Of a DNA stretch of 64,000 bases, positions 14,581 through 62,977 are shown one piece after another. Source of the DNA: Pelagomonas calceolata (Eukaryota); the NCBI GenBank assembly GCA_918797485.1, contig CAKKNE010000004.1, forward strand, positions 4,588,001-4,652,000, given 5' to 3'. Within the stretch, counting starts at the first letter, position 1. Every line of letters begins with the position of its first letter. A program made the position numbers and the translations under genes. The notes beneath the pieces are model-generated. The model made no database searches. It worked only from the letters and a program-made list of their open reading frames with translations, and was not told the DNA's origin.

Positions 14581-17274
14581 ATGAGCGCACGCGCCTCCGA
14601 CGCAGCGATAGATGAGCGCAGCAGCACCCTAGCACTCGTGGGTGCCGCGGGCGGCGGCGCGCCGAAACCGCCAAAGGCTCCCAAGGCGCCGAAAGCCGCG
14701 GCCCCGCCGAAACCGCCTGCCGCCGCGAAAAAGGGCAAGGGCAAGAAGAAGGAAAAAGTGGACATAGCCATGGAGCCGGCCCTGCCCCTGGCCGACCTGC
14801 TCGGCTCGACGAACTTCCCGCAGACTGAGGGAGAGTACTACGTGACGACGGCGATCAATTATGCTAATGGTGCCCCGCACATGGGCCACGCCTACGAAGC
14901 TTTAGTTACTGATGTGGTCGCGCGCTACCACCGCTTGAGCGGAAAAAAGCTGTGTGGAAATCAAACAGTGAGTTTCGAGCAGTTACGGGGACGACGACGT
15001 CGCGGCGATGGCGTGGGGCGTCCAAAACTTGATTTTCACACAGGCAAGAAGACCTTCATGCTCACGGGCGCGGACGAGCACGGCCAAAAGATCGCGAACA
15101 CCGCTGCTGCACAAAATATAACACCGCAAGAGTTGGTAGATACGTGCGTGGCTCGCTTCAAGGCCTTGGACGAGCGGCTCGACGTCGCTTACGACGACTA
15201 CTTACGAACGACCAGTGAAAGGCACAAGGCGTGCTGCCGGGAGCTGTGGCGGCGGTGCGCTAGCAAGGGTGATGTCTTTTTAGAGAGATATGATGGCTGG
15301 TACGACGAGCGGGCCGAACAGTTCGTAAAAGCAAGCGACGCGAAGCTCCAGAACTACAAGGACGCCGACGGCATTCCTCTGAAGCGGACGACGGAGGAGT
15401 GCTACTTTTTTAGGTTAGGTAAATATGCCCCGGCCGTGCGGAAGCACATCGAGGCGAACCCGGAGTTCGTCCAGCCCGAGGCGCGAAGAAAAGATGTGTT
15501 GAAGATGTTGGATGATGCCGAGGAGATCGAGAAGTTATCTATATCTCGCACAACCTTCGACTGGGGCGTGGGCCTGCCCGAGGGCTTCGACGAGGGGCAC
15601 GTGCGCGTGCAGTGTCTGTCTTTGCGCGGCGATGGCGTCGACGCGACGCGCGCGACCGGGGCGCCTCCGACGCGACGACGGCGTCAAGGCGCCATCACCG
15701 CGGGGGATCGACGCGCGCGAGGAAGCCGCCGCGAACGGGGCACCTCCGTTCGCCGTCGCCGCGTCGATGGCGCCTCGCATGACGCCGTCGACGCGACGCG
15801 ACACCGAACGCAGGTCATGTACGTCTGGATCGACGCGCTGACGAACTATGTTACTGGTGCGGGCGGGTTGGGCGAGCATAATGGCAAGGACTTCACGAAG
15901 GGAGGCGGAAGGTGGCCCGCGGATTGTCATATTATAGGCAAAGACATTGTTAGATTTCATGCGATCTACTGGCCGGCGTTTCTCATGAGTGCGGAGCTAC
16001 CTCTACCTAAGTCGGTATTTTGCCATGGATTTGTGCTTGACAGTGTCGGTGCGAAGATGTCCAAGACCTTAGGGAACGTCGTGGATCCCAATGCGCTGCT
16101 AGATGACGGCGTACAACCGGATAGCTTCAGGTACTTTTGTGTGAAAGATGCGTCGCCGGGTGCGGATGTGAAGTTCTCCAGACCAGCATTAGTCCTAGCC
16201 CACAACACGGAGCTCGCGGACGCGTTCGGCAACTTGCTTCATCGCGCGACGGCGTTAGCCTCCTCAAAATGTAATGGACAAGTTCCTGCCCCTGTCAAGG
16301 TAGAGGTAGGTAAACCTTTTGATCTGGCATCGTTACGAAACGACTCAGTCAAAGCCATGGCTTCGTTAGACGTCGGTGCGTATGCGAAACGGGTGATGGC
16401 GTGCTGCAGAGACGCGAACAAGTGGGTCGCCGACCTGGAGCCCTGGAAGATGAAGGACGATGCTGCGGACAAGAGGCAGGAGGTCTTGCGGTTGCTACTC
16501 GAAGCGTGCTACGCTCTCTCGTTGTTCCTGGCGCCGCTCGCGCCTCGCGCGGCGACGTTCGCGTTGCGCCGAGTCGGCGGTCAACCCATGGCAACGTCAA
16601 AACTCAAAGCGGACTTCTCGAACCTGCAGACGGGAGCTCGTGTCACGCCCGGCGCGCCGTTATTTGCGCAAATTGAAGTCGACGGCGGCGCGTCGGCGGC
16701 TCTCGCAAAGGAGAAAAAGAAGAAGGTCGTGTCGAAGAAGCCCGAGGCCTTCGTCGACTATACGGATGCCGACGACACGGCCGCGTCGCGGTTGGCGCTC
16801 GTCGTGGGGAAGATCGTGGAGGTGTGGCCGCATCCTGATAGTGACAAACTGTTCTGCGAGAAGATCGACTGTGGGGAGGCGTTCGGCGGCGTGCGGGAGG
16901 TCGCGTCGGGCCTGCAGAAGCACTACAAGGTCGACGACTTGAAAGATCGGGTGGTACTCGTCGCGGCGAACCTCAAGGCCAAGAAGCTCGCCGGCTTCCC
17001 GTCGCACGGCATGGTGCTCTGCGCGACGGCGCCGGACGGCTCGCTGTCCTGCGTCGACCCTCCAAAATCCGCCAAGCCGGGCGACGTCGTCGCGCTCGCG
17101 GGCCTCAAGAACCCGCCCGCGTCGGAGTCCCAGGTCGACAAGAAGAAGCTCTTCGCCAAGGCGCAGCCGCACTTCGTCGTCCGCGGGAACGTGTGCTACT
17201 ACAAGGACAAGCCGTTTGATATAAACGGGGCGCCGTGCACGGCGGCGGTCGCGGACGGGGCGTCGATTAACTAG
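14581..17274 (+). CDS. MARS: Methionyl-tRNA synthetase with C-terminal tRNA-binding (EMAP-II/Trbp111-like) domain, three exons
   Basis: YVTTAINYANGAPHMGHAYE (HIGH), TGADEHG, YVWIDA, IGKDIVRFH, KMSKT (KMSKS), C-terminal HPDSDKL...SHGMVLCA. Predicted introns 14942-15043 and 15601-15813. Start codon uncertain. Confidence 0.95.
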   Translation: MSARASDAAIDERSSTLALVGAAGGGAPKPPKAPKAPKAAAPPKPPAAAKKGKGKKKEKVDIAMEPALPLADLLGSTNFPQTEGEYYVTTAINYANGAPHMGHAYEALVTDVVARYHRLSGKKLCGNQTVSFEQLRGRRRRGDGVGRPKLDFHTGKKTFMLTGADEHGQKIANTAAAQNITPQELVDTCVARFKALDERLDVAYDDYLRTTSERHKACCRELWRRCASKGDVFLERYDGWYDERAEQFVKASDAKLQNYKDADGIPLKRTTEECYFFRLGKYAPAVRKHIEANPEFVQPEARRKDVLKMLDDAEEIEKLSISRTTFDWGVGLPEGFDEGHVRVQCLSLRGDGVDATRATGAPPTRRRRQGAITAGDRRARGSRRERGTSVRRRRVDGASHDAVDATRHRTQVMYVWIDALTNYVTGAGGLGEHNGKDFTKGGGRWPADCHIIGKDIVRFHAIYWPAFLMSAELPLPKSVFCHGFVLDSVGAKMSKTLGNVVDPNALLDDGVQPDSFRYFCVKDASPGADVKFSRPALVLAHNTELADAFGNLLHRATALASSKCNGQVPAPVKVEVGKPFDLASLRNDSVKAMASLDVGAYAKRVMACCRDANKWVADLEPWKMKDDAADKRQEVLRLLLEACYALSLFLAPLAPRAATFALRRVGGQPMATSKLKADFSNLQTGARVTPGAPLFAQIEVDGGASAALAKEKKKKVVSKKPEAFVDYTDADDTAASRLALVVGKIVEVWPHPDSDKLFCEKIDCGEAFGGVREVASGLQKHYKVDDLKDRVVLVAANLKAKKLAGFPSHGMVLCATAPDGSLSCVDPPKSAKPGDVVALAGLKNPPASESQVDKKKLFAKAQPHFVVRGNVCYYKDKPFDINGAPCTAAVADGASIN
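14950..15043 (+). mobile_element. Introner element (TIR MITE) in MetRS; predicted intron 14942-15043
   Basis: CTGTGTGGAAATCAA at 14950 and TTGATTTTCACACAG ending 15043 (14/15 inverted repeat). Flanks GAAAAAAG / GCAAGAAG (6/8). Removal restores RYHRLSGKKTFMLTGADEHG. Confidence 0.88.
15601..15813 (+). other. Predicted 213-nt in-frame GT-AG intron in MetRS (old introner-like)
   Basis: GTGCGC...AACGCAG. Removal restores DEGH|VMYVWIDA. Contains GCGGCGATGGCGT and CGCGTCGATGGCG motifs shared with the introners. Confidence 0.88.
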
Positions 17275-17355
17275 TCGTTTCTATATACTTAGGGCAGCGT
17301 TGCAGTCCGGGATAGGACAAAAGGGGATCCGCTGCAGAGCTTGTTGTTGGAGTGT

Positions 17356-18293
17356 CTACCACACGCGAGGATCACCGTCTTCCGTCACGGGGTAGAACTC
17401 CTTCTCGTCATACCTCAAGTCGGTCAGTTGGCCGTCCGGCCCCCACTGCCGGAGATTGAGAACGAGCTTGTAATCATTCGGGTCTCCGTTATTCCCGGTA
17501 TCCTCAAAGTAGCCATAGTAGTAGTTAAGGAACGGAGGGTCGGGATGAAGAGCGCGGACTGCGGCGCCGAGTAGCAATCATCATTTCCCCAGTCGTCCCA
17601 CCAGCACGGGGACTTGTCGTCCTTGCTGTTTTTACCGGTAATGAAGATATTAGATATCTGCGCGTTCGAGATAGACTTCGTCTTATCGGCGCTGAGGACG
17701 TAGTCGTTACCATGTCCGCCTTCGCCGCAATCCGACGCCGTGCAGCCCGGCGCCTCGAATACGGCACCGCCGCAGAGCCCCGTCGTCGAAGCGTCCATAA
17801 CAAGCCGGTTATTGTCCAACGAGACGTACGTGAAGTCCTGGAAGTTAGTGTTGTCGCCGAGGATGAACCCGATCTTCTTCGACTTGTCCATGCTCAAACA
17901 GTTTGTCTCTTCATTGACAGGACCGTAGGCCGTGATGACGGTGTTAGCCACGCCCGACCCGACGATGGACATGCCGCTGGGGACCGCGTACTGCGGGGGG
18001 CCTAAGGCGAAATCGCCCGACCCGAGCTTCACCGTCGCGTAGCCGGCGCAGCCGTCGAGGCACGTTCTGAGGTCCTTGTAATTAGGAGCCGCCCCGCCGT
18101 CGCAGTTGCACGTGCCTCCTTTCGAGAGGTTGACGACCTCCTTGGCGGGCGTCATCTGCGTCGCCGTCGCGGCGACAGCCCCGAGCGCGAACGCGGCGAT
18201 AGCGGCGACGGCGACGAGGCCCTTGATCTTGTTGTTTTTCTTCGGCGCGAGGAGCGTCGACTCCTCGGCGGGCACCGTGTTGTAAAGCGCCAT
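17356..18293 (-). CDS. Type II membrane-anchored protein with pectin-lyase-like beta-helix start; apparently frameshifted or truncated near 17537
   Basis: MALYNTVPAEESTLL + TM; ATVKLGSGDF...VPSGMSIVGSGVANTVIT. After SALFIPT the natural-looking sequence continues in another frame to a stop at 17356; the unshifted stop is at 17424. Confidence 0.6.
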
Positions 18294-18298
18294 CCTTC

Positions 18299-18457
18299 CT
18301 GCGCGGAGGTTAGCCGTGAACAGGTCGAGACCGCGGCGCGAGCGGCGAGCGCGACCGAGCGACCGCTGCGGCGGCGCTCGCGGTCCGCGGGCGCTGTCGC
18401 GTTGCGGCGAGGGCTTATCGCGGCGCCGCGGGCGGCCTGGCGAGGCGCGGCCCGCAC
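18299..18457 (-). other. Predicted 159-nt canonical 5'-UTR intron
   Basis: Minus strand GTGCGG donor, GGCTAAC branch-point-like motif, GCGCAG acceptor 5 nt before the ATG at 18293. Confidence 0.6.
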
Positions 18458-18693
18458 TGGTCAAGATGCATTGAAGCAGAGGGAATTTGTGAGAAAAAAA
18501 ACGCGGCAACGCGCCGGCTTGTAGAGTGTATGGGTCTTGTCAGTAATGTAGTGGTCTTTACGCGCTATATCTCTAGTCTGAGACACAGCACGCGCAACGC
18601 AGGAATCGGTGGCTGCAAAAGCTAATTCCGGAGAAAAACCCGCCACTCGCCGATGAGGAGGTCAAAGGAACCATGTTATGATCGCTACGAAGC

Positions 18694-20004
18694 CTAAGCC
18701 GCCAGCCGCACGCTCGGCGAAAACGGCTCCGCCGACGCCTCGCGCGCGGACCGCACCATGCCGTCCAACCTTCGATCGAGCGCCGTCATGTTGTGCTCGT
18801 AGCCCTCTCCCCTGTTCGAGAACCAGTCGACGAACTTCAGCGCAATGTCCAGCTCCGCGCGCGCTTTAGCGGAAGTCTCCTCGAGGCGCGCCACGCGGCC
18901 GCGGCACTCGGCGACGGCGCCGTGCGGCGCCGCGAGCAGGTCGCGCACCGCACCGTCGACCAATCGCCGCGCGAGCGCCGCCGCGGCCTCGGCGCCGCGC
19001 CGCGCCGCCGCGCGGTCCTCGCTGCTCTGCGAACTCGCCCTAGATTCTTCGGCGGCGAGGTCGGCCGACACGCGCGCGAAGCCCTGCTCGACCTCGCGCT
19101 TGAGCTGCTGGAGCTGCTCGAGCGTCGACGCGTGGTGCGCCACGTGCTGGGCGTGCGCGTCGCGGTGCGTCGTGTTCGCCAGGGCCTCGTCGAGGGCCTG
19201 GTCCCTTTCTTCCCGCTTCACCGCTTCTTCCCCAACCACGGCGACGATCGCGTCGACCTCGCGCTGCAGCGCCGCCGTGACCACGGAGGAGGCCTCCAGC
19301 TGCTCATGAATATGCGACCGTTCATCCGACGCCTTGGAGGCACGCTCCTCCAACGCTTTTACAGTAGCGTTCGTCCGGTCGATGAACGAATCGACGTCCC
19401 GCAACCGAATGCACGTCGCGCGGAAGGCCGCCTCGTCCACTCCATCGACCTTAGTAGCGACGACGGCGTCCGTGGCATCTAAACGACGCCCGAACGCCGC
19501 GAGCTCGTCCTCCAGCGCGAGCGCGTGGTCCTTCGCGGCCCCGCGCAACTCGAGCGCGTCGAGGCGCTCCGTGAGCGTTCTATGGGATTCCAATGCGTGG
19601 TCGTGGCGCCCGGAGTGCTCCGCGTGCCGGCCATCAATCAAGTCAGCTAGGCGCGCGATGGCGGCCGCATTCTCGGCGACCTGGCGGTTCAGGGGCACGT
19701 GGTGGTGGTGCTGGTGCGGCTGCTGTTGTGTCGCCGCCGTCGCCGACGGCGCCGTCGACGGCGCCTCGGACGCCGTCTCGTTGATCGACTCCGCGTCGAG
19801 CGACGTCGCGGCCTCGAGCCGCGCGAGCTGCGCCTCGAGGCCGGCGCAGCGCGCCTCGAGCGTCGCGTTGTGGCGCGCGGCCGTCTGGAGCGCGGCGATC
19901 TCCGTCTCCTGGTGCGCGAGGCGCGCCATGAGCTGGCCGAAGAGCTGCTCGAGGCGCGGCAGGTTCAGGATGCCCTGGAGGGGCGTGGGGCCGGCGGCGG
20001 CCAT
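18694..20004 (-). CDS. Coiled-coil protein, 436 aa
   Basis: ATG-initiated long ORF, heptad-rich, ends LDIALKFVDWFSNRGEGYEHN. Confidence 0.75.
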   Translation of the reverse strand: MAAAGPTPLQGILNLPRLEQLFGQLMARLAHQETEIAALQTAARHNATLEARCAGLEAQLARLEAATSLDAESINETASEAPSTAPSATAATQQQPHQHHHHVPLNRQVAENAAAIARLADLIDGRHAEHSGRHDHALESHRTLTERLDALELRGAAKDHALALEDELAAFGRRLDATDAVVATKVDGVDEAAFRATCIRLRDVDSFIDRTNATVKALEERASKASDERSHIHEQLEASSVVTAALQREVDAIVAVVGEEAVKREERDQALDEALANTTHRDAHAQHVAHHASTLEQLQQLKREVEQGFARVSADLAAEESRASSQSSEDRAAARRGAEAAAALARRLVDGAVRDLLAAPHGAVAECRGRVARLEETSAKARAELDIALKFVDWFSNRGEGYEHNMTALDRRLDGMVRSAREASAEPFSPSVRLAA

Positions 20005-20413
20005 GGTTGTTCACAGCGTTCACAGCGGCGGCGGCGTCAAGCGCTGGGCACACACCTCTGGCTTGGCTGTCTATCTCGGCTGCGCGACGGTGGCGCGGCG
20101 TTTTCTTGGCAGCGTTTCGTGTCGAGACTGTCGCCGGCCTACTGCACAGCTTGGTTTTTGAATCGCGTTCGTTTGCGTGTCGGCGTTTTGAAAAAGCTCT
20201 GTTTGGCACAGCTTGTCAAACGGTGCGAGCTGGCGCGACCAACCACAGACCCGTCTCTCTGGCACGCGACGCGTCGGGAAAGACCATCTGACTACCGCGG
20301 CGGGGGGCCAGAGCGTGCGGGGTTGGAACTGGGCTGGACCTCATGGAGGCTGCAAGCTGCCCGCGGGAGGAGTGCGATACGAGTGCCGTAGCACCAGGAA
20401 AAACCCATCAAGC

Positions 20414-21472
20414 ATGGGCTGCTCCGCGTCCGCCGAGGCGGCTCCTGATCTCCCGCCGCCCCCGGCAGGAACCAATGTTGGAGACGGCACGAAGGTCCTG
20501 CTGGCGTGCATGACGCAACATTGGAGACGACGCAGGGACAACTGGCTCGGCTTCGACGAAAGCAACTGCATGCGCGCGATGAAGATTCGCGAGCGCGCCG
20601 TCGCGTTCACGCTGCACGCGGTGAACGCGCGGCAGCAGCACACCTACACGCTCGAGAGCGAGGGCGGCTGGCTCGGGCGAGTGGATAGCGAGAGCATACA
20701 AATGATGGCCAACCAGCCGCGGGAGCGCGCCGCGCGCGTGCGCGTCAACCTGCGGCGCTTCCGGCAGACGGGGCGGGTGACGCTCCTGTGCGTCGACAAC
20801 AATAGGTACATTTCCCACCGGAACCATGGCTGGATGGTCGCCGACTACGGCAACGCCGAGACCGCCGGGAAGCGCATCGACTACTACATGGCGGTTGTTT
20901 CCGGCCGAGGCGCGGCCCGGCTCGTGCCCCCGGGCCACGTCTCGGGCGCCGAGGCCGCGCGGATGGCGGCGCGGGCGCCGCCGGCGCCGGCGCCGCAGCG
21001 GCCGAGCGCCCGGCCGCCGCAGCCGCAGCCGCGGCGCGCGCGCGCCGAGGACTACGACGAGTTCATGGCCTTCACGGGCGTCGACCGCGCGACGGCGGAG
21101 CGCTTCGTCGACGGCGCGCTCGGCCGCGGCCTGAGCCTCCGCGACGCGATCCGCGCCTTCTTCGAGGGCCAGGGCTCGCCGAAGCCGCCGCCGCCGCCGC
21201 CGCTCGAGGTCTCGTTCCGCACGAACGGCGGCCAGACCTTTTCCGCGGGCGACCTCGGGGCCGAGGTCACGGAGGCGAGCGCCGTCGGGGAGCTGCGGGC
21301 GCTCGTGGCGAAGCACTACGACAGCGAGCCGAAGCGCATCCGGCTCGTGAGCCGCGGGAATATTCTGCGCGACGACGCGCAGACGCTGGGCGCCGCGGGC
21401 GTCCGCCCGAAGGACAAGCTCATGGTCGTCGTCATGAAGGGCGCGACGCGGTTCTCCAAAGGGCGGAAGTGA
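20414..21472 (+). CDS. Putatively N-acylated protein with UBA-like and C-terminal ubiquitin-like domains
   Basis: MGCSAS (myristoylation/palmitoylation-type); DEFMAFTGVDRATAERFV...LRDAIRAFF (UBA-like); IRLVSRGNILRDDAQTLGAAGV (UBL). Confidence 0.78.
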   Translation: MGCSASAEAAPDLPPPPAGTNVGDGTKVLLACMTQHWRRRRDNWLGFDESNCMRAMKIRERAVAFTLHAVNARQQHTYTLESEGGWLGRVDSESIQMMANQPRERAARVRVNLRRFRQTGRVTLLCVDNNRYISHRNHGWMVADYGNAETAGKRIDYYMAVVSGRGAARLVPPGHVSGAEAARMAARAPPAPAPQRPSARPPQPQPRRARAEDYDEFMAFTGVDRATAERFVDGALGRGLSLRDAIRAFFEGQGSPKPPPPPPLEVSFRTNGGQTFSAGDLGAEVTEASAVGELRALVAKHYDSEPKRIRLVSRGNILRDDAQTLGAAGVRPKDKLMVVVMKGATRFSKGRK

Positions 21473-21517
21473 CGTAATTCTATAAGGTATATTTGTTGCG
21501 ATCCTCATGTTACGGTG

Positions 21518-23533
21518 CTAGACGGGCCCCGCGAGGCGACCACACCGCCCCGATACCAGGTCGCCGAGGTCGCGCGCGAGCTCCCCCGCGGCCGGCCTCT
21601 TCTCCCAGCGCGGGTCCAGCATCGCCGCCAGCAACGCCCGTTCCCGCGCCGCCGGCAGCGCTTTTTCCCGCGCCTGCCTGGCGAGGAGCCGGCACTGCGC
21701 GGCGGGATTTCGTATCGCCGGGGGCGCCGCGCGGAGGAGCCCGCCGAAGCTCGTCGCGTTCCAGGCTTTGATCGGTACGGCCGTCGTGTCGCGACCGCCG
21801 AGCCGTTTTCTCGTGGCGCCGTACTCTTCATTTAACCGCAGCAACCACTCGCGAAGAGCTCTTCGATCTCCCCAATCGCCACCGCACCGCAAGAGCAGGA
21901 ACACGAACCCGGCGCTCCAGACGTCGCTCGCCGGCGTCTTCCGCACGTGGCCCGCCTCGGGTGCTAGCACTCGCGAGCCCGCCACGTGCGGACACCGTCC
22001 CGCGCCGACGACGCACGCCCGCCCAAAGTCCGAGATTTTCCACCGCATGGCCGGCCCCGCGCCCGCGAACAGCAGATTGCCGGCGTGGACGTCCTGGTTG
22101 ACGATGCCGGCGGCGTGCGCCGCCGCCAGGCCCCGCAGCAGGTCGTGCGCCGCGCGCAGCGCAAAGCACGACCGGTAGCGGCGGCGCGGCACGTACTGGC
22201 GGAGCGGGCCGGTGTCGTTCGCGACGAGGAGCTGCAGCAGATTGCCGTCCATTTTTCCGTAGGCGGCGACGCGGTCGCGCGCGCCGCGGCGAAAGCACGC
22301 CTCCGCCGTCAGCACGTGCTCGCCGGAGACGTTCAGCAGCGCCGGCAGGAGGTCGCCGGCCAGATGATCCGCGAAGGTCGCGCCCGCCTTCAGGACCACG
22401 CGTCGCCGCGTGCGCGTGTCCGTGGCGGCGTCGACGGTCAAGACGACGCCCGTGCGGGGCCCCAGGGGCGACAACCGCGCGCGATCGACGAAGCGCGCCT
22501 CGTCGAAGGGCGCGTCGCAGAAGCGGTCGAGGCGCTCGTCGCTTGCGACGGCGGCGGCCAGGAGTGTGCGCCGCACGCGATGCGACGCGGCGGCAAGGTC
22601 GAGGACCTCGACGCGCGCGCCCGGCCCGCGGGCGCGGAGGACGAGCGCCGCGCGGTGCGGGCGCGCGACGATCACGTCGCCGCGCACGACGACGGGCCGC
22701 CGTCTTACGACGCCGTCGCAGCCGCACGCATCGTCCACGTAACTCGCGTTAACGACGGCCGCGGCGAGCAGGCCGAACGCGCGGGGCGTCGTGGCGTCCT
22801 CGACCGCGCCCGCTTCGACCGCTTTGCGGAAGGAGTCCTCGTACGCGTCAGCGCCGCGGGCGGCCGGGGACGAGCCGAGGGGCACGGGCGCGGCGCAGCG
22901 CGGCGCGTGGGCGGGGCACGGCACGCGCAGCGAGCCGACGTTCACGACCGCGGCGCGCCCGGCCGCGAACCACGGTGCGCCGGCCGGGAGCGCGTAGGAG
23001 GCCCGCGGGGGCTGCCCCGTCATGTTCAGCACGTCGTCGGCGTCCTCCGCGTCGTCCGTGACGTGTACGATGAAGTTCGCGCCGCAGCGCGCGAGGTCCT
23101 TCGACACAGGCGGGTCGTACCGCGACCGGAGCGCATGCTTGACGGCGTGCATGGACGTCGAGCCGGCGGGGGCGTAGGCGGTGAGCACGTACGCCTTGCG
23201 GTAGTCGAGCGCTTCCAGGTGCGCAGCTTTGACGCGCATGCACTCCACGAATTTTCCCGGATTCGTGTTGGGCAGCTTTCGGTACACGCGCCGGGCGAAC
23301 TCGGTCACGTTGCGCATCGCGAAGGGCTCGACGCGCAGCACGTGGACGCCCGCGCCGCGGAAGGCGTCCAGCGCGGCCTCGACGTGCCGCATGCCGTGCT
23401 GCCAAATGATGGACGCGTGCCAGAGGCCGCGGGCCCTGCGGCAGGGCCGCGATCCGGCACTCCATTCGGGCGGGAACGCGGGCGCGAGCGGCTGCGCGGC
23501 GGCGAGGCAGGCGAGCGCCGCGATCCGGCGCAT
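21518..23533 (-). CDS. Signal-peptide protein with C-terminal protein kinase-like domain
   Basis: MRRIAALACLAAAQP signal; VVLKA, IVNQDVHAGNLL, KISDFG, LAPE, SDVWSAG, AMLDPRWEKRP kinase subdomains. Confidence 0.8.
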   Translation of the reverse strand: MRRIAALACLAAAQPLAPAFPPEWSAGSRPCRRARGLWHASIIWQHGMRHVEAALDAFRGAGVHVLRVEPFAMRNVTEFARRVYRKLPNTNPGKFVECMRVKAAHLEALDYRKAYVLTAYAPAGSTSMHAVKHALRSRYDPPVSKDLARCGANFIVHVTDDAEDADDVLNMTGQPPRASYALPAGAPWFAAGRAAVVNVGSLRVPCPAHAPRCAAPVPLGSSPAARGADAYEDSFRKAVEAGAVEDATTPRAFGLLAAAVVNASYVDDACGCDGVVRRRPVVVRGDVIVARPHRAALVLRARGPGARVEVLDLAAASHRVRRTLLAAAVASDERLDRFCDAPFDEARFVDRARLSPLGPRTGVVLTVDAATDTRTRRRVVLKAGATFADHLAGDLLPALLNVSGEHVLTAEACFRRGARDRVAAYGKMDGNLLQLLVANDTGPLRQYVPRRRYRSCFALRAAHDLLRGLAAAHAAGIVNQDVHAGNLLFAGAGPAMRWKISDFGRACVVGAGRCPHVAGSRVLAPEAGHVRKTPASDVWSAGFVFLLLRCGGDWGDRRALREWLLRLNEEYGATRKRLGGRDTTAVPIKAWNATSFGGLLRAAPPAIRNPAAQCRLLARQAREKALPAARERALLAAMLDPRWEKRPAAGELARDLGDLVSGRCGRLAGPV

Positions 23534-23715: not shown

Positions 23716-23739
23716 GCCAGCGGCCGGTAAGACACTAGT
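23716..23739 (-). promoter_or_regulatory. 24-bp motif copy
   Basis: Reverse complement ACTAGTGTCTTACCGGCCGCTGGC between divergent genes. Confidence 0.5.
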
Positions 23740-33738: not shown

Positions 33739-34019
33739 CTTTGAATGTGTTTTTATTTGCGTCGACGGCGTGTTGTTGCCCAGGGACCAGTTTCCGCGTG
33801 TCGTCGGGAACAGTGGCCGCCACCTCCTGAGGCCTTGCAAGCGAGTCGAGGGACCTTCCGCAGCAGCGAGGGACTCTTGATCCCTGTAGCAGCACGTGCA
33901 TCCCCCACTCCCATCGGCACCGCAATCTACCGTTCCCCTCCGTCCACCTCCTCGCTGCTGAGGTCCATTGGCGGAGGAGTCAGAACGCCAACGACGCAAC
34001 CAAAAAATGGAGAAAATAC

Positions 34020-51895: not shown

Positions 51896-52632
51896 GAGCT
51901 GACGAGTCCGTAACAATGACACGAGGACGCGGAGGGGCGGCCGCGCGAGGCGCTCGAGGACGGCTTCCTCGTCGTCCTTCTGCGAGTCGTCGTCCGAGCT
52001 GAAGGGGTCGGCGGCCGCCTCGCCTGCGCGCGGGGGCCGCGGGTGTCGGCGCTTTGAATTTGGGCCGCTTTTTTATGCTATCTTCCAAACGGTCTCGCGC
52101 GGCGCGAGGGCGGCCTTTTTCGACGCGGCGCCGCGCCCGTCGCGGTCTGGGCCGTCTGATAGCTCTTGGGCCGCGGCATTTCTGGTCTCGGGGCCACTGC
52201 TGGCGGTGATTGGGGCAGTAAAAGGTCGAGCTCTGCCTTTGTTTGCTAAATGCCTCTCCCTAAACGGCAAAATTCGAGAAGGACGCACGACGCTTCCAAG
52301 AGACCCCCTTCCGCCTCCCAAACGAGATGGCCGAGCTTTTGCTGAAAGCAGCACGAACGTCGTCGACGACGCGCCCGCGGCTGGGAATATCTCCCTGCCC
52401 CACTACAATCGTGTCAGGAGGCGTCCAATACGCATTGATTTCACTGTCAATTGACTCCCCGCATGATCGAAAACCCGATTTGCAGACTGCAGGCTGCACT
52501 TTGCGTCGTCGCGCACGCAGCATCAACGGACGCTACTTACCTGTTGATGCTCGCATAGTTCGACACACCTCACAGACTCATCGCTCTCCTAGTTTCGTCA
52601 TCGCTGCTGCCGCAGCCATCAGAAGCACCACC

Positions 52633-54865
52633 ATGCACCTGCTTGCCCTCGTCGCAGCAGCAGCACTGCGCCGCACGAATGCCCTATCCGCACCAAACCT
52701 GCGCCCGCGCACCGTGCAACAACACCTGCGGCCGCGCACCGTGCAACTCGACACGGACTGGCACGCCACGATCTACGAACGCGACGACATCGCGGCCAGC
52801 GTCGAGGCCTGGATGGCGACCGACGATAACGTAGTTGACCCCTTCGGCGGCGTCGCCTGGCCGGGAGCTGTAGTAGCAGCAAGAAAACTGCGCAACCACG
52901 GCGTCGCGGGCAAGGTCGTGTGCTGCCTCGGCTGCGGAACCGGGGTTGAAGTGCTCGCCGCAGCATCGCTCAACGCGTCGCGAGTGATTGCCCTGGACTA
53001 TTCTGATGAAGCCCTCGAGCTTTGTGAGAAGGGCGCGGAGAACTACACCTGCGTCGAGACTTGTCATTTTGACGTGCGCCGCGATACCATACCAGCGTGC
53101 GACGTGTTGGTAGCGGCCGACGTCTTCTACAGCAAGGATTTATCAATAGCCTGCGGCCGGGCCTGCGGCGCTGCTTTACGTACAAATAAAAGGCCGGTCC
53201 TGATCAGCACGGACTCGCAGCGGTACGCGGGCCACACGGCCGCGTTCCTCCAAGCCTTAGACGTCGACTTGGCGAGGTTCGAACGAACGACGCTCCCGGA
53301 CTTCGTCGGGAGTGGACTCTTGGTGGAAGGGGACCAGACCTACGACGCGCACGTCGACGTTTTGATGCTTGACTTCGCTGGCGCGGACGACGAGGTCTTC
53401 ACGACGGCGCGCGTGCTGCCGGGCGGCTGTGTGGGGTTGTGGAGCCATCATAAGGAGCGGATCGGAGGGGGCGAGGTCGAGGCGCTCCTGGCCGCGTTCG
53501 GCCGCAGCGACGGCCTCGTCCGGCTCTCCAAAAAGTCGGACGGGAGCATCGTCGCAGCTTATAGGGAGCGGCGGACGTGCGAACGTATGGACCTCATCAC
53601 GCTGCCCTGCCCGCCGCGGCCGCCGGGCGTGCCGCCGGGCGTCAAGCACGGCGCGTGGGGCGGCTACCGGGCAGCGATCGCCGAGGCGATGGCGCACGGC
53701 GCCGACGCGGCGCTCTTGGTGGATGCCGACGGTTGCATCGTCGACGGCGACCGGGCTCTTCCAGTAATTCTCGGCGCCGACGGTATTATAAGGCACCCCG
53801 GGCCGGCGGACGGCGCCGTCGCGAGCGCGACGCTCGCCGCCGTGCTGAAAGAGGCGCCGCCGTGCGAGGTCCGCGAGGAACGCCTTTCAATGGAAATGAT
53901 CTTGAATGCGAGGGAGGTCGTGCTCCTCGGCAGCGGCGTCGGCTGCGTTGCCGTACAGAGCGTCGACGGCGTCGTGCTCGACACCTCCGGAGACGAGCTC
54001 GTGTCGACGTTCGCCGCGGCGCTGGACGCCGCGCATCAGAATGACGCGCTGCGGCCGAGCATAGAGCATCCTTTATTAAGACGCCTCGCGGTCGGCGAGG
54101 AGGTCGGGAACATAAGGCGCCTGTCATCCAAACCGTCGGCCTTCTACGTGCGGTCGCTGCTTAGCGAGAGGGACTGCGGCGCGATCAAAGCGATGGCGCA
54201 AGTGGCGAACATGACCCAAGCGAGGACCTATGGCGGCGGCACGACCGCGCGGACGAAATGCGAGGTCTCGTGGATCTCACCGCCCCCTGCTTTAACAGCC
54301 GACGTCGCCGTGATGTTCTTCAGCCCGGAAGCGCTCGAGCGGCCGGGCGGCGGCTGTGATGCGCCTGTGTGGAGAAAATATCGCGTCGATGGCGTGACAC
54401 GAGGTGCATACGGTCATCATACGCCCGCCGCTCGCGAAACGCCGCCGCGCCTGAAATTTGATTTCCACAGGCGAAGACCTCCAGGTGCTGCGGTACGCCG
54501 AGGGGGGTGGATATTCGATGCACCACGACGGGAACGCGCGCGCGTTGACCGTGCTCTACTACCTGAATGGCGTCGGTGAGACGTGGCTGCCCCTCGCCGA
54601 CGCGCCGCCACGGCCGAAGAACGGCGAGGACGCGATGGCCCGCGCCGCGAAGCTCGACCCGGATACAGACGGTGTCCGCGTCACGGCGCCGGCCGCGGGC
54701 GACGCACTAGCGTTCTTCTCGCTCGACGACAGCGACGGTTCCTACGACTGGTCCGCCGTGCATCGAGCTTTACCCTCGACCGGCGAGAAGTGGGTGGCGA
54801 ACCACTGGTTCCGCGTCGGAGGGCTCGGCCTGCCTACGCCTGATCCCCGGGAAGACATGTTGTAA
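52633..54865 (+). CDS. Triple fusion: SAM methyltransferase (family 16-like) + class IV aminotransferase/ADC-lyase-like + prolyl-4-hydroxylase-type 2OG-Fe(II) oxygenase; two exons
   Basis: Exons 52633-54355 and 54471-54865. DPFGGVAWPGA...LGCGTG...AADVFY; GVKHG...ALLVDADGCIVDG...EVVLLGSGVG; CEDLQVLRY...HHD...TVLYYLN...VHRALP...KWVANHW. Confidence 0.82.
54365..54470 (+). mobile_element. Introner element; predicted GT-AG intron 54356-54470
   Basis: CTGTGTGGAG... left end and ...TTTGATTTCCACAG right end; internal CGCGTCGATGGCGTG. Removal of 115 nt repairs the frame (GGGC|EDLQVLRY). Confidence 0.85.
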
Positions 54866-54885
54866 TGTGTAGAATATATCAACTT

Positions 54886-54909
54886 GCTAGTGTCTTACAG
54901 GCCGCTAGC
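54886..54909 (+). promoter_or_regulatory. 24-bp motif copy
   Basis: GCTAGTGTCTTACAGGCCGCTAGC, ~80 bp upstream of ATG 54987. Confidence 0.55.
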
Positions 54910-54986
54910 TTCGTCAGGGCAAACGGGGTTACGCCTCATTCAGTCGAGCGCGTGCGTGGATCGGCATCACAAAAAGAGCCTACATC

Positions 54987-55700: not shown

Positions 55701-55746
55701 TTGTAGAATCTAACTGTATGTTTTAACAATAAACACCACAATAAGA

Positions 55747-58700
55747 TTACACTAGCGCCTGCGACGCCTGCTGCTCCACCTCAACCGCCACCTCCTGGAG
55801 CGTCGCGAGCCGCTCGGCCCCGAGCTGCGCGCATAGGGCCTCGAAGTCGCCCGCGCGCTTGCACGCGTGGAGCGCCCGGACAAAATGCTGGTTCGGGTCC
55901 TCGTCATCAAGAGGCGACTCGTACAGGTAGTTGTCCCCATCATCATCATCGTCGTCGTCGTGGAGCCACGCCTCGGCCGCGTCAAATTCAGCTAATCTTG
56001 CCCTAATTCCAGCGAGCTGCTGCGCGCCCATGCCGTTCTGGACGGCCTCCCGATCGTCGTCATCATCATCGTCCTCGTCGTCGTCGTCGTCGTCCTCGAC
56101 CCACTCGTCCTCGGCCGACGCGACGGCGTCGTCATCATCATCATCCTCCTTCCCGTAGATCTTGTCCTCCTTGTTCTTCCTCATGTTGGCGAGGACGTCG
56201 ACTAACGCCGAAAGCATCTGGGGTCTTGCTTGTTGTACTTTTGGCGGGCACGGCTCTACGGATAATACAGCAGACAATCCTAAAGCATATAGTTTACGAG
56301 AGAGCATGCCTTTTGCGTCTGGTGCTAATTCGAGCCACTTCGTCAGGAGCAGTTGCGTCTGAGCTGGTGTTACTTTGCCCTCATCTAATGCATGTAACGC
56401 TAATTGAGGGTTGTAGATCAGTAAGGAGTTCCACACATCTAGTAAAGCCGCACCTAACCGCGGCCGCCAGACGGCATCCGGCGACAGGCCAACCACACCG
56501 TCGGGCTTCGTGCCTATTTCATCTGCTCGAGGCGGGCCCAACGCTCGTTCCAAAGCGGCCGCGACCAAAGGCGTGCACCTTTGTCTGACATATTCATCGA
56601 CCCGACCTCGACAGTTGTGCAGCACCGACAGTAAAACATGAGTAGCCTTCCGGCAGTCTTCTTCCCCACCTCTCGTCTGGTTATCAGGCCACAAAAACCT
56701 CTCAGGAACACCCACCAAACTCTCCAACCGTGACGATGCCAAAAACTTCTCCGTGTCTCTCGACACAAAGTTGTCTAGAGACGGCACGAGCTCCGCGATG
56801 TAATCGCACCTGTGTGGAAATCAAAATTTTACGGCGCGTTCCACGCCATCGACGCGACGCCTGCTCGATGGCGTCCCGACACACTGATTTCCACACAGAA
56901 TCGCACGCGAACCCGTGGAACGCCCGGATCATCTGGTCGAACAAGCTCCACAACTCGTCCGAGAAGGGCGTCGAACCGTGGTACGTGAGATAAGATACCA
57001 CTTCGATGCCGTTCTCGAAGTACTCCAGAAACTCCCCCGACTCCTCAAAAACTCTGTGTAGTACGGGCCTCAGATACGGTTCGAGCTGCGCGTAGACGTT
57101 GTTCTCGTTATCATCTAGTGACGCAAGTACAGCGGCCATCGCTTCCACGCACTGGACCGCCGCCATGGACGCCTCCTCGTCGTCGTCTTCCCCCGCATAC
57201 GCGTGGAAGGCCTCGGCGAGTTTCTGGGCTAGCGCTACCGCGTAGGGGGCTATATCTTTGCCATACCTATCTACGACTATCTCCAGAGCTTGGACGACGT
57301 CATCAGAAGCCGCTTCTCGCATCACTCGGAAGCAGGCATCCAACAACGTGCCCAAATGTGGTCTGAGTAACTGATCGAATTGCCCGACGTCCGACGCGAG
57401 TAAACTTCTCACGAGACCAAACGCTTCGACGCGTACTGGTAGGTCCGGGTCGTCTAACGATCTCAATAAAGCAGCACATACCCTCTGATTTATTTCTGTC
57501 ACTGCAGTATGCTCCGAGAAGCGTTGTAGCGTTTCACACGCGCGACATCGCAAAATCCCGAACGGCGAGCCCTGTTCGAGGTCTGGTAACACATGCGTAG
57601 CTAGCAAGGCAGCAATCAAAGGCGCCCAGTTGTTTCGCGACTGCAACTCGTCCGCAATCGCACCTAAGGCACATAACGCGCCGTCCTTCTGTCTCGCCGT
57701 TTCTAGGGACGGTGCCTGCTGGTAGGCTTCCAGTACGGATGCGATTCTCTGCAATAACGGATCCAACACCACCTTGCCCTTGCACCGCACGAGATCACCG
57801 ACTAACGCCGTCGCCGCCGCTCGAGGTTCATAAAAGTCCTCGAGCGGGTCGTGGGCCCTCCTGACAAATTCTTGGGGATCCTCAGTAAAGCGTTTTATAT
57901 CCAAGGGCGTGGGACACATCGTCGGTAACGTGCACTCGAACAACACGAACTCCAAATGAGGTTTGAGTAATTTGTACAACGATCCGACTTCGACGGCTGA
58001 ACAGACGTAGGTGAAAGCTAGCTGTCTCACCCGTCGAGACACCCACCTACCACGAGCGGAAGCAGCTAACAACCCGAGCATACTATTCAAAAGTAGTGGA
58101 GCCACGTCGGCCGCGAACCTCCGCGCGAACTGCTTCGCGCCGTCTTCGGCGAACTTCGGCCTCCCATATCGCGTTAAGAATCTAGTGGCAATTTGCGCCG
58201 CCCACTTCTTGAGCTTCCAGGCCGGCTGCGTCTCCACGGCGTCGTCCTCCTCCGGGTGTTGGGCGGACGGCGCCGGCGCGTCCGACTCGAGGACCATCCG
58301 TACGTCCTCGAACCACCCTAGCACGACGGTGTCGTCGTTTAAGGCCACTCTCGGTAGCGCGAACTGCGTACAAGACCAGAAGATCTTGAGGATGAGTTTT
58401 GCTAATGATGCCGCGTCGGCGTGCTGGCCTGTTGACGGTAATACGGTCCTTAACAAATCTCGCAACAAAGGGAAGGCCTGCCTTACCAAATGTTCCAAAG
58501 GCCCTCTTGTGCTATTGTCGGCATCATCAGGAGAATTAGGATCGAAGGACTTGTACTCGTAGCGCTTGGCCACTTTTCTCAGAGCCAACAACGCGTTATG
58601 TACCGAAGTAGGATCGGGTTTGGCGTGGATCACTCTTAGTAGTGCAGGAAGGAGATCGGGCCACCGCTCCGGAAAGTCGCGCGTCGCCAATTCATTAACA

Positions 58701-59035
58701 GCTTCAGCGAGCTGGTCCCGCACCGGCCCGGTCACGTCGGGCCGCATGAGCGCGTCGAGCACCGCCGTCCGCGCTTGCGCGCGGTCCGGCTCGCTCCCAA
58801 AAATGTCGTCCTCGCCCCACTTTCTCTTAATTAGATTCTTGACGGTAATGGCCGCGGCCTGGCGCGCGTCCTCGCGGACCGGCGCCGCCGCGACCTGCAC
58901 GAGGAGGAATAGCGAACCGCGCATCGACGTGAGTTGTGCTATGCCTTCTTCTGCGGCCTTTCTGGTTGCGGCGTCTGCCGAAAACGTGTGGATTAGCGTG
59001 TTTATGACGGCTTCGGGGTTCGGTTGCTGCGCCAT
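55747..59035 (-). CDS. IPO7: Importin-7/8 family nuclear transport receptor, two exons
   Basis: Exons 59035-56907 and 56809-55747. IBN_N (RQAAAITVKN), DFPERWP, KLILKIFWS, WKLKKWA, FTEDPQEF, QKDGAL; junction GFACDYIAELVPSLDNFVSR; acidic C-terminal tract. Confidence 0.92.
56810..56898 (-). mobile_element. Introner element with perfect TIRs and perfect 8-bp TSD; predicted intron 56906-56810
   Basis: CTGTGTGGAAATCA (56810-56823) / TGATTTCCACACAG (56885-56898); AATCGCAC at 56802-56809 and 56899-56906. Removal of 97 nt repairs the importin frame. Confidence 0.95.
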
Positions 59036-59541
59036 GGTGTTGTGCAGCGTGCAGGCTGCAGCTCTCGCTAGTATGCGTTTGCTTGGTTATCTGATCGCAC
59101 GCGTGTGGTCCGGTTGCAGCAGCGTTGTCGCAACCTTTGCTGCCTCACTGACTGCGACAGGACCAGTGTTTCTGCAAATCGCCAAGCAAAATGCTTGTGA
59201 GCAGCATAATGACTAGCGTGCTCGCCCACTAGCCCATTCCCAGCTTTATCTTTGGCCAGTTCCTGTGGCTCTCGAGCGGCTCTGTCGACGCTAGACTCTG
59301 CGCGTAGGCTCGTGTCGCGCACAGGGGTCCCAGATCTCGAAATTCAGGCCTCGTCGTGCGTGAAACCCAAAATTTCTCGCCAGGCTGCGATCTGAGAAGG
59401 CAATCGCAGACGCGCGCGCACACCATCGCTCTCAAACACACTCGCCGACGGCGACGAAAAGGCCCGAGGTAAAAGAGGCGTCGACATCAGCACGGTTTGA
59501 CCACGCGCCGCGGGCGTCGAGAGTCGAGACGACATCGGATC

Positions 59542-60127
59542 ATGGCTCGCCGGCGCATCTGCGCCCTCCTTCTCGCCGCGGCCGCGACGGCGTCCGCCGA
59601 CGTGAACGAGACCGCCGCGAGCGAAAGCCGGGCCCGGGCCTTGGCGGCCCAGTCCTACGACTGGCTCGTGACGACGAAGAGCCAAATCGCAGCGCAATGC
59701 GGCGCGCACGCCCCGGCGGCGAAGGCCTTCGCGGCGCAGCACGGCCCAGGGTTCCTCGGCGGTGCCATCACGGCGTTGCTGTGCATGCTCCTCGGTGGTA
59801 AAAAGCCAAACAAGAAAGGCGCTCGCCGCGCCTCGATGGCGGAGGCTACACAGGTGCGCCGCCGGGCAGGTCTACTTCCAGCCGAACTACGCGATCGACG
59901 ATAGCATCGCGCGGGACGGCTTCTACCAGTTCTTCGGCCAGGATTCCGTGAGACGCGCCATCGACCAGCACTACCATTATGTCAATATGATGCCGACGAT
60001 GGAGAAGGCAAAAAAAGGCCTCGGGCTCGCGCCGCTCGCCCCCCGCCGCCCCGCGCCGGGGCCGCGCGTCCGCCACGGCGGCTCCGCGCCGCCGACCTCG
60101 GGCGCAGCGGTGGCGGCGGCGCCTTGA
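59542..60127 (+). CDS. Hypothetical signal-peptide protein needing one frame-correcting intron
   Basis: MARRRICALLLAAAA frame hands over to the VYFQPNYAIDDSIARDGFYQFFG frame near 59780-59870. Confidence 0.55.
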
Positions 60128-60275
60128 GGCATACAGAGGCGTCGAGAGGGCTCGGGGCGCGTCGCGACCGGTCGTTCGCCAACCCGCACAGTTCGAACTT
60201 CAGGAGAGCATTGCTCGACATTCAGCACTTCAGAACCATTTATATGCGCCTCGACGCCTCGAGGTCCACATATAG

Positions 60276-60817
60276 ATGGCCGCGTTACGCCGTCTCTCTT
60301 CCGCGAAGATCCCTGCGGGCGCCGCGCTGACGACGCGCCGCCTCTCAAGCAGTCAACTCTCAGACACTGCAGCTCGTCGCCTGTCAGTCGAGTCGTTGAG
60401 CCTCTCGCCGACGATACCGTATGAACGCAGACCGAGCGGGGGTCCTCTCACGCCCCGGCCCACGCTCACGCCAACTAACACGCCGGCGAACCTGAACGCG
60501 CTCCTCGCGCCGCCCGCGATGCCGCGCCGCGCGTCGACCTATCATGATACCGAGAAGGCGAATAGCGGCGAGTTGGACAACAGCGGCGGGTCTGCGAGCG
60601 GTGCCGATATCATCAGGAGAGAAAGAGGCGTATTCCCGCGGACGCCGTCGACGCCACGTCGAAGCGTCGCAACGCCGTCGTCGCTGTATCCGCTTCTGCT
60701 CGATGGCGTTCTTCGCGCAGGTCGACGGGCAAGAATAGGCCGCTCGGGCGAGAGCTCAAGCCGACGCTCCCTCGGGTCCTATCTCGCGCCAACGCCTCCG
60801 TGGTGGACGAGGAGTAG
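60276..60817 (+). CDS. Low-complexity Ser/Pro/Arg-rich hypothetical protein, predicted intron 60590-60720
   Basis: Splicing GT60590..AG60720 gives ...NSGG|STGKNRPLGRELKPTLPRVLSRANASVVDEE*. Start uncertain. Confidence 0.4.
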
Positions 60818-61282
60818 GGACGCGGGCCTTCTTGCGGAGTTTTGTTGTTGCAGTTTTGACTCCTTCCCCTTCCCTCCCCCCTGCTATTATCTTATAACAC
60901 ACTACCAACGTAGCCGCGCCTCCAGGGCGCGCGGGACGTTCGACGCGGGCTCGCGCTCCTGGGTCAGCCTCTCTCTCTCGGGTCCAGCGGTGGTCGCGGA
61001 CAGTCTCATACGGAGAGCCAGAGCCCTGGGGCGAAAAGCTGAAAAACCCGCACTCAGCCAATATCGCGCAGCCCAGCTCGACGCTACGGGTCCCCGCAAC
61101 CTGCAGGGGGCACTGACAGCGCATAAATACACTGCTCTCTTCGCGCTCCCAGCGAGCAGCGCAAGACTGGCCGGAACGAAGCTCTCAGATCCACACAGAG
61201 AGCGCTCTCTGCCAGGTGGCTGCGAGATAGCGCCCGCGAACACCGGTGTGAAGAACGCACACAGATAACGCACCGACACAAG

Positions 61283-62977
61283 ATGCTGCGCCTCCTCGCC
61301 GTCGCAGCGATGGCACGCGCCTTACCGCGCAACGACGGCAAGTCCGACGAAAAGCTCAGCCACGAGGCCCAGACCTACTACGACCCGGCCGCGCAGACGT
61401 TCGCATTATATACTCTGTTAGGAGTGCCGACAAATGCGACGTTGACCGAGATCGACCGGGCCTTCGTCAAGCACAAGAACGATTTAGAGAGGAACAGGAA
61501 AAACAAGAAGAACGTCCAGATCTATGGGCTGATCTACAAGTCCTTGGATGAGGACGAGGACGGCTTGTTGAGTGCAGAAGAAAGTGAGAGTCTCGTGGAG
61601 GCGTTGGGTCTACGATTCGATGAGGAGGACGATCATGTGCAAGAGTCCGTCGCCAAGTTCCGGAGGAGGACCTGCACGGACAAAGACGCTGTATTTAGTT
61701 CAAAGGAACACCTCATGATTGTGGCGACCTACGCCTCGCTGCGCACGGCGCGCGTGACGCTCGGTGATGCGGAGATGCGGACTAAGTATGATGAGCAGGA
61801 GCGCATCAAAGCGCGGGAGTATGCTGAAGACGTCGACGACGACAATACGTACCTGGGCGCCGCGAAGCGCAAAGTTTTTGGCGTCATCTACTACGGGATC
61901 TATGGCGGCATTGTAGTGTGGACAATTGTAGCGGTCATTGCGTGTCTGGCGTACGTGGCTTGCAAAGCGCTCGCGTCCATACCGAACGCGCCGCCTCTGT
62001 TCGGGCGGTGCGCCGACCGCTGCGGAAGCGTCTTGATTTGGATTAACCCAGGGTGGAGTACGGTGTGCACACTCGCGTTTTGCGCGCCGAGTACGGTCCT
62101 CGCGGCGATGTTGTCAGCTTTTGCGGTATTCTTGTTCCTCTTTAGTCTGCTCGCGAAGACGCCCGTCGTTCTTCAGAGGGGGCTTTGCGCCTTGATCATT
62201 GCCGCACTGCTCGCGTGGCTCGTACCGGCCTGTGTGGAAATCAACCAGTGCGTCGGGTGCTGCCACGCCATCGAGCAGGCGTCGCATCGATGGCGTGGAG
62301 GTCGACGCGGAACGCGCCGTAAAATTTTGATTTCCACACAGGTACCGGCCGTAAAAAATGTGCTGACGCGCCCACGGGAACATGTGAGACGCCTCGTCCA
62401 GGGCCTGCGCGGCCTCGGTAGAGAGGCCTGGGGCGTCGGGAAGGTTTTGGTGCCGGGTGCGGCCCTGGGACTGGTCTACTCGATGTTCGAGGTGGAGCTC
62501 GAGACGCACCTGCTCACGGCTTTAGCGGGAGGCGTCGTTGTCATCATGGCGGTGAAGCCGCTGCGGAGCCGCGCGTTCCGCTACCTCGGCCAGGCGCTGG
62601 CCGACACGGGCGTCACTCAGCCGCCGAGCGAGGCGCCGCGCATCCTCGAAGCCTTGCAGCGCCTCGCCACTTTACCCGTGGAACTATACGTTCCGATCAA
62701 CGTCCTGGACGACGCGCAAGTCAAGGCCAAGCTCGAACGAGCCGGCTTCTCGCGCCGCGACGGCGCCGCGACGCCGAGCCGCGCCGAGCTCGAGGCGGCC
62801 TACGACGACGCCTATGGCGCCTGCACCGTGTGCTTCGCTCAGTTTGAAGCCGGCGACGAGTGCGTGCGCCTCCTCTGCGGGCACGTCTTCCACCGCGACT
62901 GCGTGGTCCAGTGGGTGAACACGCGGACGGAGTCGGGCCGCGTGCCGACGTGCCCCCAGTGCACCTGTGACATGTGA
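61283..62977 (+). CDS. Signal peptide + split J-like domain/EF-hand + multi-TM + RING-H2 protein; two exons
   Basis: LYTLLGVPTNATLTEIDRAF...LGDAEMRTKYD; DEDEDGLLSAEE; CTVC...CGHVFHRDC...W...CPQC. Predicted intron 62222-62341. Confidence 0.85.
   Translation: MLRLLAVAAMARALPRNDGKSDEKLSHEAQTYYDPAAQTFALYTLLGVPTNATLTEIDRAFVKHKNDLERNRKNKKNVQIYGLIYKSLDEDEDGLLSAEESESLVEALGLRFDEEDDHVQESVAKFRRRTCTDKDAVFSSKEHLMIVATYASLRTARVTLGDAEMRTKYDEQERIKAREYAEDVDDDNTYLGAAKRKVFGVIYYGIYGGIVVWTIVAVIACLAYVACKALASIPNAPPLFGRCADRCGSVLIWINPGWSTVCTLAFCAPSTVLAAMLSAFAVFLFLFSLLAKTPVVLQRGLCALIIAALLAWLVPACVEINQCVGCCHAIEQASHRWRGGRRGTRRKILISTQVPAVKNVLTRPREHVRRLVQGLRGLGREAWGVGKVLVPGAALGLVYSMFEVELETHLLTALAGGVVVIMAVKPLRSRAFRYLGQALADTGVTQPPSEAPRILEALQRLATLPVELYVPINVLDDAQVKAKLERAGFSRRDGAATPSRAELEAAYDDAYGACTVCFAQFEAGDECVRLLCGHVFHRDCVVQWVNTRTESGRVPTCPQCTCDM
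62230..62341 (+). mobile_element. Introner element with perfect TIRs and perfect 8-bp TSD; predicted intron 62222-62341
   Basis: CTGTGTGGAAATCAA...TTGATTTCCACACAG; GTACCGGC at 62222-62229 and 62342-62349. Interior closely similar to the 56810 copy. Confidence 0.95.

Follow-up and report, generated by a model that had tools for sequence, protein, structure and literature searches.

This study concerns a 64,000-nucleotide stretch of the genome of Pelagomonas calceolata (NCBI GenBank assembly GCA_918797485.1, contig CAKKNE010000004.1, positions 4,588,001 to 4,652,000 of the forward strand; hereafter the window), in which four short elements, designated E1 to E4, interrupt four protein-coding genes and appear to be copies of an intron-creating DNA transposon, or introner. 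The gene order of the window is that of Pca_4p25050 to Pca_4p25270 on chromosome 4 (Guerin et al. 2022, supplement), and a Pfam search of 20 selected open reading frames (ORFs; 141 of at least 150 aa were listed) returned MetRS, kinase, LRR/C-lectin, translin, RINGv/TPR, zinc ribbon, importin and RING domains, together with a methyltransferase-aminotransferase-2OG oxygenase fusion. The elements, the introns that they form and their host genes are collected in Table 1.

Table 1. Elements, introns and host genes in the window (TIR, terminal inverted repeat; 3n, length divisible by three).
Feature	Position	Strand	Remarks
E1 element	14950..15043	+	94 nt; TIRs 13/14; sister subfamily
E1 intron in MetRS	14942..15043	+	GA..AG, 102 nt, 3n, stop-free in host frame
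Second MetRS intron	15601..15813	+	213 nt, GT..AG, 3n, stop-free; no TIR; two core motif copies; splicing control
MetRS host gene with C-terminal tRNA-binding domain	14581..17274	+	matches Pca_4p25050
E2 element	54365..54470	+	106 nt; degenerate ends agreeing 9/14; sister-subfamily 3' end
E2 intron in 2OG-Fe(II)/P4H part of fusion gene	54356..54470	+	GT..AG, 115 nt
E2 host fusion gene: methyltransferase, class IV aminotransferase-like, 2OG-Fe(II) oxygenase	52264-54840	+	matches Pca_4p25230
E3 element	56810..56898	-	89 nt; TIRs 14/14; deletion derivative of 203-nt master
E3 intron in importin-7	56810..56906	-	GT..AG, 97 nt; perfect 8-bp duplication 56899-56906 / 56802-56809
E4 element	62230..62341	+	112 nt; TIRs 14/14; deletion derivative of 203-nt master
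E4 predicted intron in RING gene	62222..62341	+	GT..AG, 120 nt, 3n, stop-free; splicing inferred
E4 host: RING gene			matches Pca_4p25270

Four elements and evidence for their removal from mRNA

A preliminary description of the window, made from its letters alone, had placed four clear copies of one introner family at these positions. The four elements are indeed present: the 14-nt TIR CTGTGTGGAAATCA has six matches with at most two mismatches in the window, where 0.17 are expected, and none of 100 shuffles reaches six. E3 and E4 have perfect TIRs and are identical to a 203-nt master over 88 of 89 aligned columns and at 109 of 112 positions, respectively. Four clear copies of one element are not supported, as two subfamilies are represented, all four elements are shortened and E2 is degenerate; E1 and E2 have the interiors of a sister subfamily with the same ends, to by-catch copies of which they align. 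The size of 89 to 112 bp given in the preliminary description is that of the window copies and not that of the family.

A perfect 8-bp duplication flanks E4 (62222-62229 and 62342-62349) as well as E3, and the duplication at E1 retains 6 of 8 positions (GAAAAAAG versus GCAAGAAG; upstream copy 14942-14949, downstream copy 15044-15051), both base differences being silent in frame and the donor being GA, a feature to which the preliminary description does not draw attention. Two perfect duplications and one decayed one are thus present as described, and the second decayed one, at E2, is not recognisable as such.

For E1 we used RNA runs X21, X22, X12 and X16, of which X21 and X22 come from one sample (S5) and X12 from another study, and for E2 to E4 runs X21, X4, X14 and X15. 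E1, E2 and E3 are removed from mRNA by splicing. The 97-nt skip across E3 appears in 60 raw reads and one X14 contig, an X14 contig joins 53901-54355 to 54471-54840 across E2, and the 102-nt skip across E1 appears in 24 (X21) and 9 (X22) raw reads and one X12 contig. Three equivalent cuts are possible at the E1 junction, and GA..AG (14942-15043) alone ends in AG; an internal GTGAGT was considered as the E1 donor and rejected, as it would give a 76-nt, out-of-frame intron and no such joint is among the matches listed. E4 is likely spliced: a piece of an X14 contig restarts exactly at 62342 (record position 353), as the spliced form would. The predicted RNA junctions were therefore recovered at 14941/15044, 54355/54471 and 56907/56809, and only indirectly at 62221/62342.

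These data support the proposal that the TIR supplies the 3' CAG and the upstream duplicate the donor, directly at E1 and E3 and indirectly at E4. Clean restoration of the coding sequence at every site is not supported, as E1 appears to be about half unspliced in S5 (see below). At the protein level, the HIGH-like and GxDxHG motifs are 29-33 residues apart in 116 of the 120 MetRS relatives listed (of 212), four being unmeasurable, and 63 residues apart in the unspliced window frame; the E1 insert is hence lacking in 116 of 116 measurable relatives among those listed.

E3 and E4 are overlaid by thousands of RNA reads from other copies, and the family must therefore be abundant in the genome. 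At 62229-62309, some 3900 poly(A) reads of other loci enter the element from one dominant flank, so that at least one copy elsewhere stays unspliced in an abundant RNA.

For a core motif of the elements, CGCG(T/G)CGATGGCG, 0.03 occurrences are expected in the window and 10 are present. Seven occurrences lie outside the four elements (1623, 3223, 9921, 12167, 15625, 15760 and 35336, with a variant at 33760), some of them about 20 nt past stop codons or near gene starts and two inside the TIR-less second intron of MetRS. The motif may be a general non-coding signal or a trace of older elements, and the second MetRS intron, close in length to the 211-nt intron that a complete introner forms, may itself be an introner, either an older or a different one. 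The core motif also occurs in three direct repeats of 48 nt (9825-9977, and 20068-20100) that lie towards the 5' end of a gene for a GTP-binding, elongation-factor-like protein and likely represent another intron or repeat family. A low-GC intergenic stretch at 721-1504 is 84% identical to positions 1-784 of locus L003, where the neighbouring gene is another, and is therefore a dispersed repeat. Both stretches share an open minus-strand frame of 111 codons, and the two plus-strand ORFs searched gave no Pfam match. Two inverted repeat pairs with GCTAG-bounded motifs, at 182-208 / 2957-2983 (27 nt, 96%) and 1513-1543 / 12633-12663 (31 nt, 84%), have related motifs in L003.

The family in metagenome loci

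A metagenome scan with the 20-nt right end of the element, which ascertains copies by an intact right end alone, found at least 120 loci. Among the 122 matches listed, 91 have a left TIR within 400 nt, giving 89 distinct sites, and 31 do not, many of these lying at contig ends. As in the window, these similar copies sit at unrelated gene positions and their likeness ends at the element borders. The same 20-nt end has no match in viral contigs and one in prokaryote genomes, where the left end of an element sits at the terminus of a contig from a proteobacterial metagenome-assembled genome (L121:2653-2673), likely a contamination or chimera and not evidence of transfer.

Duplications were scored at 84 of these sites, after exclusion of a nested pairing of 410 nt and of four sites whose flanks were short. 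A length of 8 alone rises above background, with a mean match of 0.85 versus 0.38 in shuffled flanks and 0.19-0.33 at other lengths; the duplication is perfect at 43 sites and matches at 7 or more of 8 positions at 65. The commonest element size is 203 nt (21 copies), which yields a 211-nt intron. These full-length copies lie 2.5-10.3% from their consensus, none is closer than 3.4% to another and no two are identical, distances that are inflated by wild polymorphism. The family is a young burst without sign of current copying in this sample; the earlier statement that it was recently active is only partly supported.

The direction of insertion was determined for 53 copies, namely the 65 sites with at least 7 of 8 duplicate positions matching, minus four with short flanks and eight that could not be called. 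The host strand was assigned by a codon model, which was right in 118 of 120 hold-out windows and in 97 of 97 when confident. All four window elements face the same way, as the preliminary description had noted (chance about 0.15); fixed orientation as a family rule is rejected, with 31 copies forward and 22 reverse (p 0.27). Element length does not differ between orientations (p 0.45). In the host direction, the first two bases of the upstream duplicate are GT in 38 copies and GC in 15, that is, in 53 of 53, and at sites with GY on one strand only the call fell on the donor-bearing strand in all 21 forward-only cases and in all 13 reverse-only ones. Pfam matches were obtained on the called strand for 6 of the 22 reverse loci (that strand alone was submitted, and one match is weak), and in one of the reverse-facing copies (L064) a single PALP domain is split by the element into profile positions 5-86 and 90-286. 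The inverted repeat terminates with CAG whichever strand is read, so that the element brings an acceptor with it in both orientations.

Position 2 of the duplication is confounded by donor selection, and its far end is unconstrained by the donor. There, position 7 is A in 28 of 53 copies against a background of 20% (p 4e-8) and the duplication ends in AC in 15 of 53 (p 5e-7); the A at position 7 agrees with an nTnnnnAn preference of the Hermes type.

Deletions of at least 10 nt are present in 54 of 88 distinct copies, and half of them (36 of 72) open within consensus positions 24-40, around the midpoint of a palindrome of 16 bp that is perfect and occupies positions 23-38. Their end points are distinct in 65 of 72 cases. 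This hotspot persists when the alignment is varied in six ways, with 27-36 of 68-74 deletions beginning at positions 27-36, and E3 and E4 break at it as well. It is seen in 10 of 17 forward and 12 of 16 reverse deleted copies, which favours a cause at the DNA level over selection for splicing. Alleles at the same site differ in their deletions (174 versus 187 nt in L092/L119, 101 versus 109 nt in L020/L105), and at least some deletions therefore arise in place. Hairpin-provoked slippage and aborted gap repair after excision are candidate causes. Microhomology is not claimed as a mechanism, the mean of 1.0 being weak against 0.70 at random (maximum 1.08 in 2000 draws), nor are deleted copies clearly older than full-length ones (perfect duplications at 24/42 versus 20/29).

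Apparent partial retention of the MetRS copy

With variant-bearing reads removed, the interior of E1 is covered in X21 by 34 and 23 sense reads that carry the window's letter at 14965 and 15005, against 24 spliced reads, and in X22 by 15 and 6, against 9. The control intron of the same gene is spliced efficiently, with an interior depth of 1-6 and 75 and 55 spliced reads, and spliced reads per flanking depth amount to 0.41 and 0.22 at E1 versus 0.81 and 0.67 at the control. This comparison suggests that E1 is about half retained in sample S5, which adds 34 residues in frame. Against retention, the depth in X12 is fully explained without a contig that keeps E1, though contigs drop variants.

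The interior reads could instead stem from other copies of the subfamily or from unprocessed RNA, with E1 spliced normally. Reads of other copies do align on E1, as the loose ends at 14944-14950 and 14996 attest, and the two runs that support retention are a single sample, while the other study gives the spliced contig only. The interior counts above, however, survive the removal of variant-bearing reads, and the ratio of spliced reads to flanking depth, a measure that other copies do not inflate, is lower at E1 than at the next intron. On balance we consider this explanation rather unlikely, and partial retention the better account of the reads.

The opposite proposal, in which E1 is never spliced at GA, the apparently spliced reads stem from a second allele that lacks the element and translation reads straight through the filled one, draws on the rarity of GA donors, which occur in none of the 53 strand-called wild copies and are not listed as a class among the 340 donors of the published P. 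calceolata family fam2 (gt 281, gc 42, non-canonical 17; PMC12130899, Dataset S2 row). RNA alone would look the same for an empty allele and a spliced E1, and an intron of 3n length without stops, flanked by duplicates that differ silently, fits translation through the element. Against this, no linked variants in X21 and X22 distinguish two haplotypes across 3 kb (a single variant, at 6%, lies at 16459), the contig of X12 spans the junctions of both MetRS introns with 0 differences in 2462 nt, no contig that keeps the intron adds depth, and an insertion old enough for 2 of 8 duplicate bases to differ would be expected on a diverged haplotype. GA donors are moreover reported in introners at 0-40%, depending on the family, in passages of PMC9860276. 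We therefore regard a second allele as highly improbable and retain the reading that E1 is spliced, in part, from a GA donor.

At the loose end at 15043, a divergent wild relative goes on with the same codons downstream, which makes drift from GC to GA in the intronic duplicate the simplest history. Such a drift would likely have weakened splicing, and weak splicing is likely tolerated since the intron, at 102 nt, keeps the frame and has no stop codon. More tentatively, we propose that the introner shapes the later life of its introns: a break hotspot at the palindrome would trim new 211-nt introns, in place and in either orientation, to shorter ones that are each unique, and a trimmed, in-frame copy that has lost its canonical donor in MetRS would give rise to an isoform of the synthetase that is 34 residues longer; as a whole we hold this proposal to be less likely than not. 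If true, it would describe a transposon-born intron on its way to becoming alternative coding sequence in an essential gene, that of MetRS.

Intron gain by a probable transposon and its known relatives

The structural features of the family, together with the RNA data, are consistent with the following model. A transposase, probably hAT-like and with a weak nTnnnnAn target preference, would often create a GT by its choice of site alone, and selection would remove exonic insertions that lack a usable donor. Splicing takes out one duplicate together with the element and leaves the pre-insertion coding sequence. After insertion the copies would decay in place, with deletions opening mostly at the 16-bp palindrome, which lies some 30 nt in from the left end, and the shortness of E3 and E4 would follow from this. 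We are confident that the window elements are short copies of a transposon, likely non-autonomous and moved by cut and paste, that acts as an introner in this way and that is probably fam2.

Several results weigh against this interpretation. No recognisable duplication was found at E2, where the GT donor stands 9 nt before the TIR and the flanks agree at 5 of 9 positions (1 of 8 at the 8-bp offset). The splice joint of E4 is not among the 15 matches listed (of 105) in the RNA runs, and no convincing empty allele was found with 83 junction queries against 121 loci, a search of low power. A transposase was found by Pfam neither in the 20 window ORFs nor among 41 ORFs taken from the 9 loci in which an end lacks its partner, and no long TIR-bounded element was found among 14 long TIR pairs (377-2788 nt) in the metagenome loci. 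The element ends begin with CTGTG, and typical hAT ends read (C/T)A(A/G)NG, a motif that is not strict. The published annotation, up to within chromosome 5, contains no hAT term and one Tc1-like DDE gene (Pca_3p03790). Finally, the fam2 consensus was not found in 14 supplement files (TIR string, 0 matches).

Of the long pairs, those in L016 and L114, which were inspected, and those among the by-catch copies are neighbouring short copies, and the other pairs have poor duplications. The two copies in L016:690-1100, and likewise in L114:255-700, lie within about 150 nt of each other, roughly one nucleosome apart, each with its own duplication. A search for hAT Pfam matches in one prokaryote genome gave 0 matches, with controls silent too, and is uninformative.

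From the sequence, a hAT-type transposase behind the family is plausible: a strict 8-bp target-site duplication, short 14-bp TIRs and the A at position 7 all fit this superfamily. The 8-bp duplication is also found in P, Merlin, Novosib and some MULE elements, however, and the same introner mechanism could be driven by a non-hAT enzyme of one of these superfamilies. Ends that begin with CTG, and an annotation in which, up to within chromosome 5, the sole transposase match is the Tc1-like gene, would sit well with this possibility. Yet fam2 has a Repbase match to hATv-2N1_EHux (Gozashti 2025, PMC12130899), and a transposase gene could be missing from the annotation because repeats were masked before ab initio gene prediction (PMC9481584). 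We consider a non-hAT enzyme unlikely and keep a hAT-like one in the model.

Introners of P. calceolata are already reported and their mechanism is already known. Those of Aureococcus anophagefferens, another pelagophyte species, are DNA transposons as well; they co-opt splice sites and insert both ways. Work on Aureococcus by Huff, Zilberman and Roy in 2016 reportedly described an 8-bp target-site duplication (TSD) with the acceptor in the TIR. According to a review passage, both orientations were already reported in introners by Huff et al. 2016.

In P. calceolata itself, 956 putative introner elements have been described with GT or GC donors, an AG acceptor, a conserved TIR and an intron peak at about 210 bp (Guerin et al. 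2022, PMC9481584), with which our 203 + 8 = 211-nt intron agrees; neither families nor a TSD nor a GA donor is mentioned in the main passages and Supplementary Note 3 of that work. A division into 11 families is given by Gozashti et al. 2025 (PMC12130899), of which fam2 comprises 340 copies of 202 bp with a TIR of 13, classed as hAT by Repbase match and as co-opting the 5' and carrying the 3' splice site (Dataset S2). Our family resembles fam2, which is classed as a TIR DNA element of the hAT type, in species (by gene order), in size (about 202 bp), in TIR (13), in a donor some 7-8 nt before the element start, in the co-opted 5' and carried 3' site and in GT and GC donors. It differs from the fam2 row in its 203 nt, its 14-bp TIR and a measured 8-bp duplication, where the row gives TSD as NA; the row is silent on orientation, deletions and retention. 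The family is thus probably fam2, the main introner catalogued in this species, an identity that rests on size, TIR length, offset and mechanism because the consensus is not in the supplements.

Outside the introners, the closest likeness is to Hermes, for which a target consensus of nTnnnnAn and an 8-bp duplication are described (PMC2803484); the present family shares both, as well as the short TIRs of hAT elements. It departs from Hermes in its CTG...CAG ends, and passages of PMC2803484 do not describe Hermes as an intron maker.

Among the literature listings searched there was no paper on a deletion hotspot or on retained or GA introns in Pelagomonas, which is weak evidence of absence as few subscription journals were covered. 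The main finding bears out a route of intron gain that was known before, and does so where introners are already listed for the species; in this respect it adds little. What it adds to the known listings is the measured 8-bp duplication, the use of both orientations and a hotspot at which deletions sharply cluster. The two orientations, the hotspot and the leaky GA-AG copy in MetRS all bear on the fate of such introns, be it the loss of their family resemblance or their conversion into alternative coding sequence.

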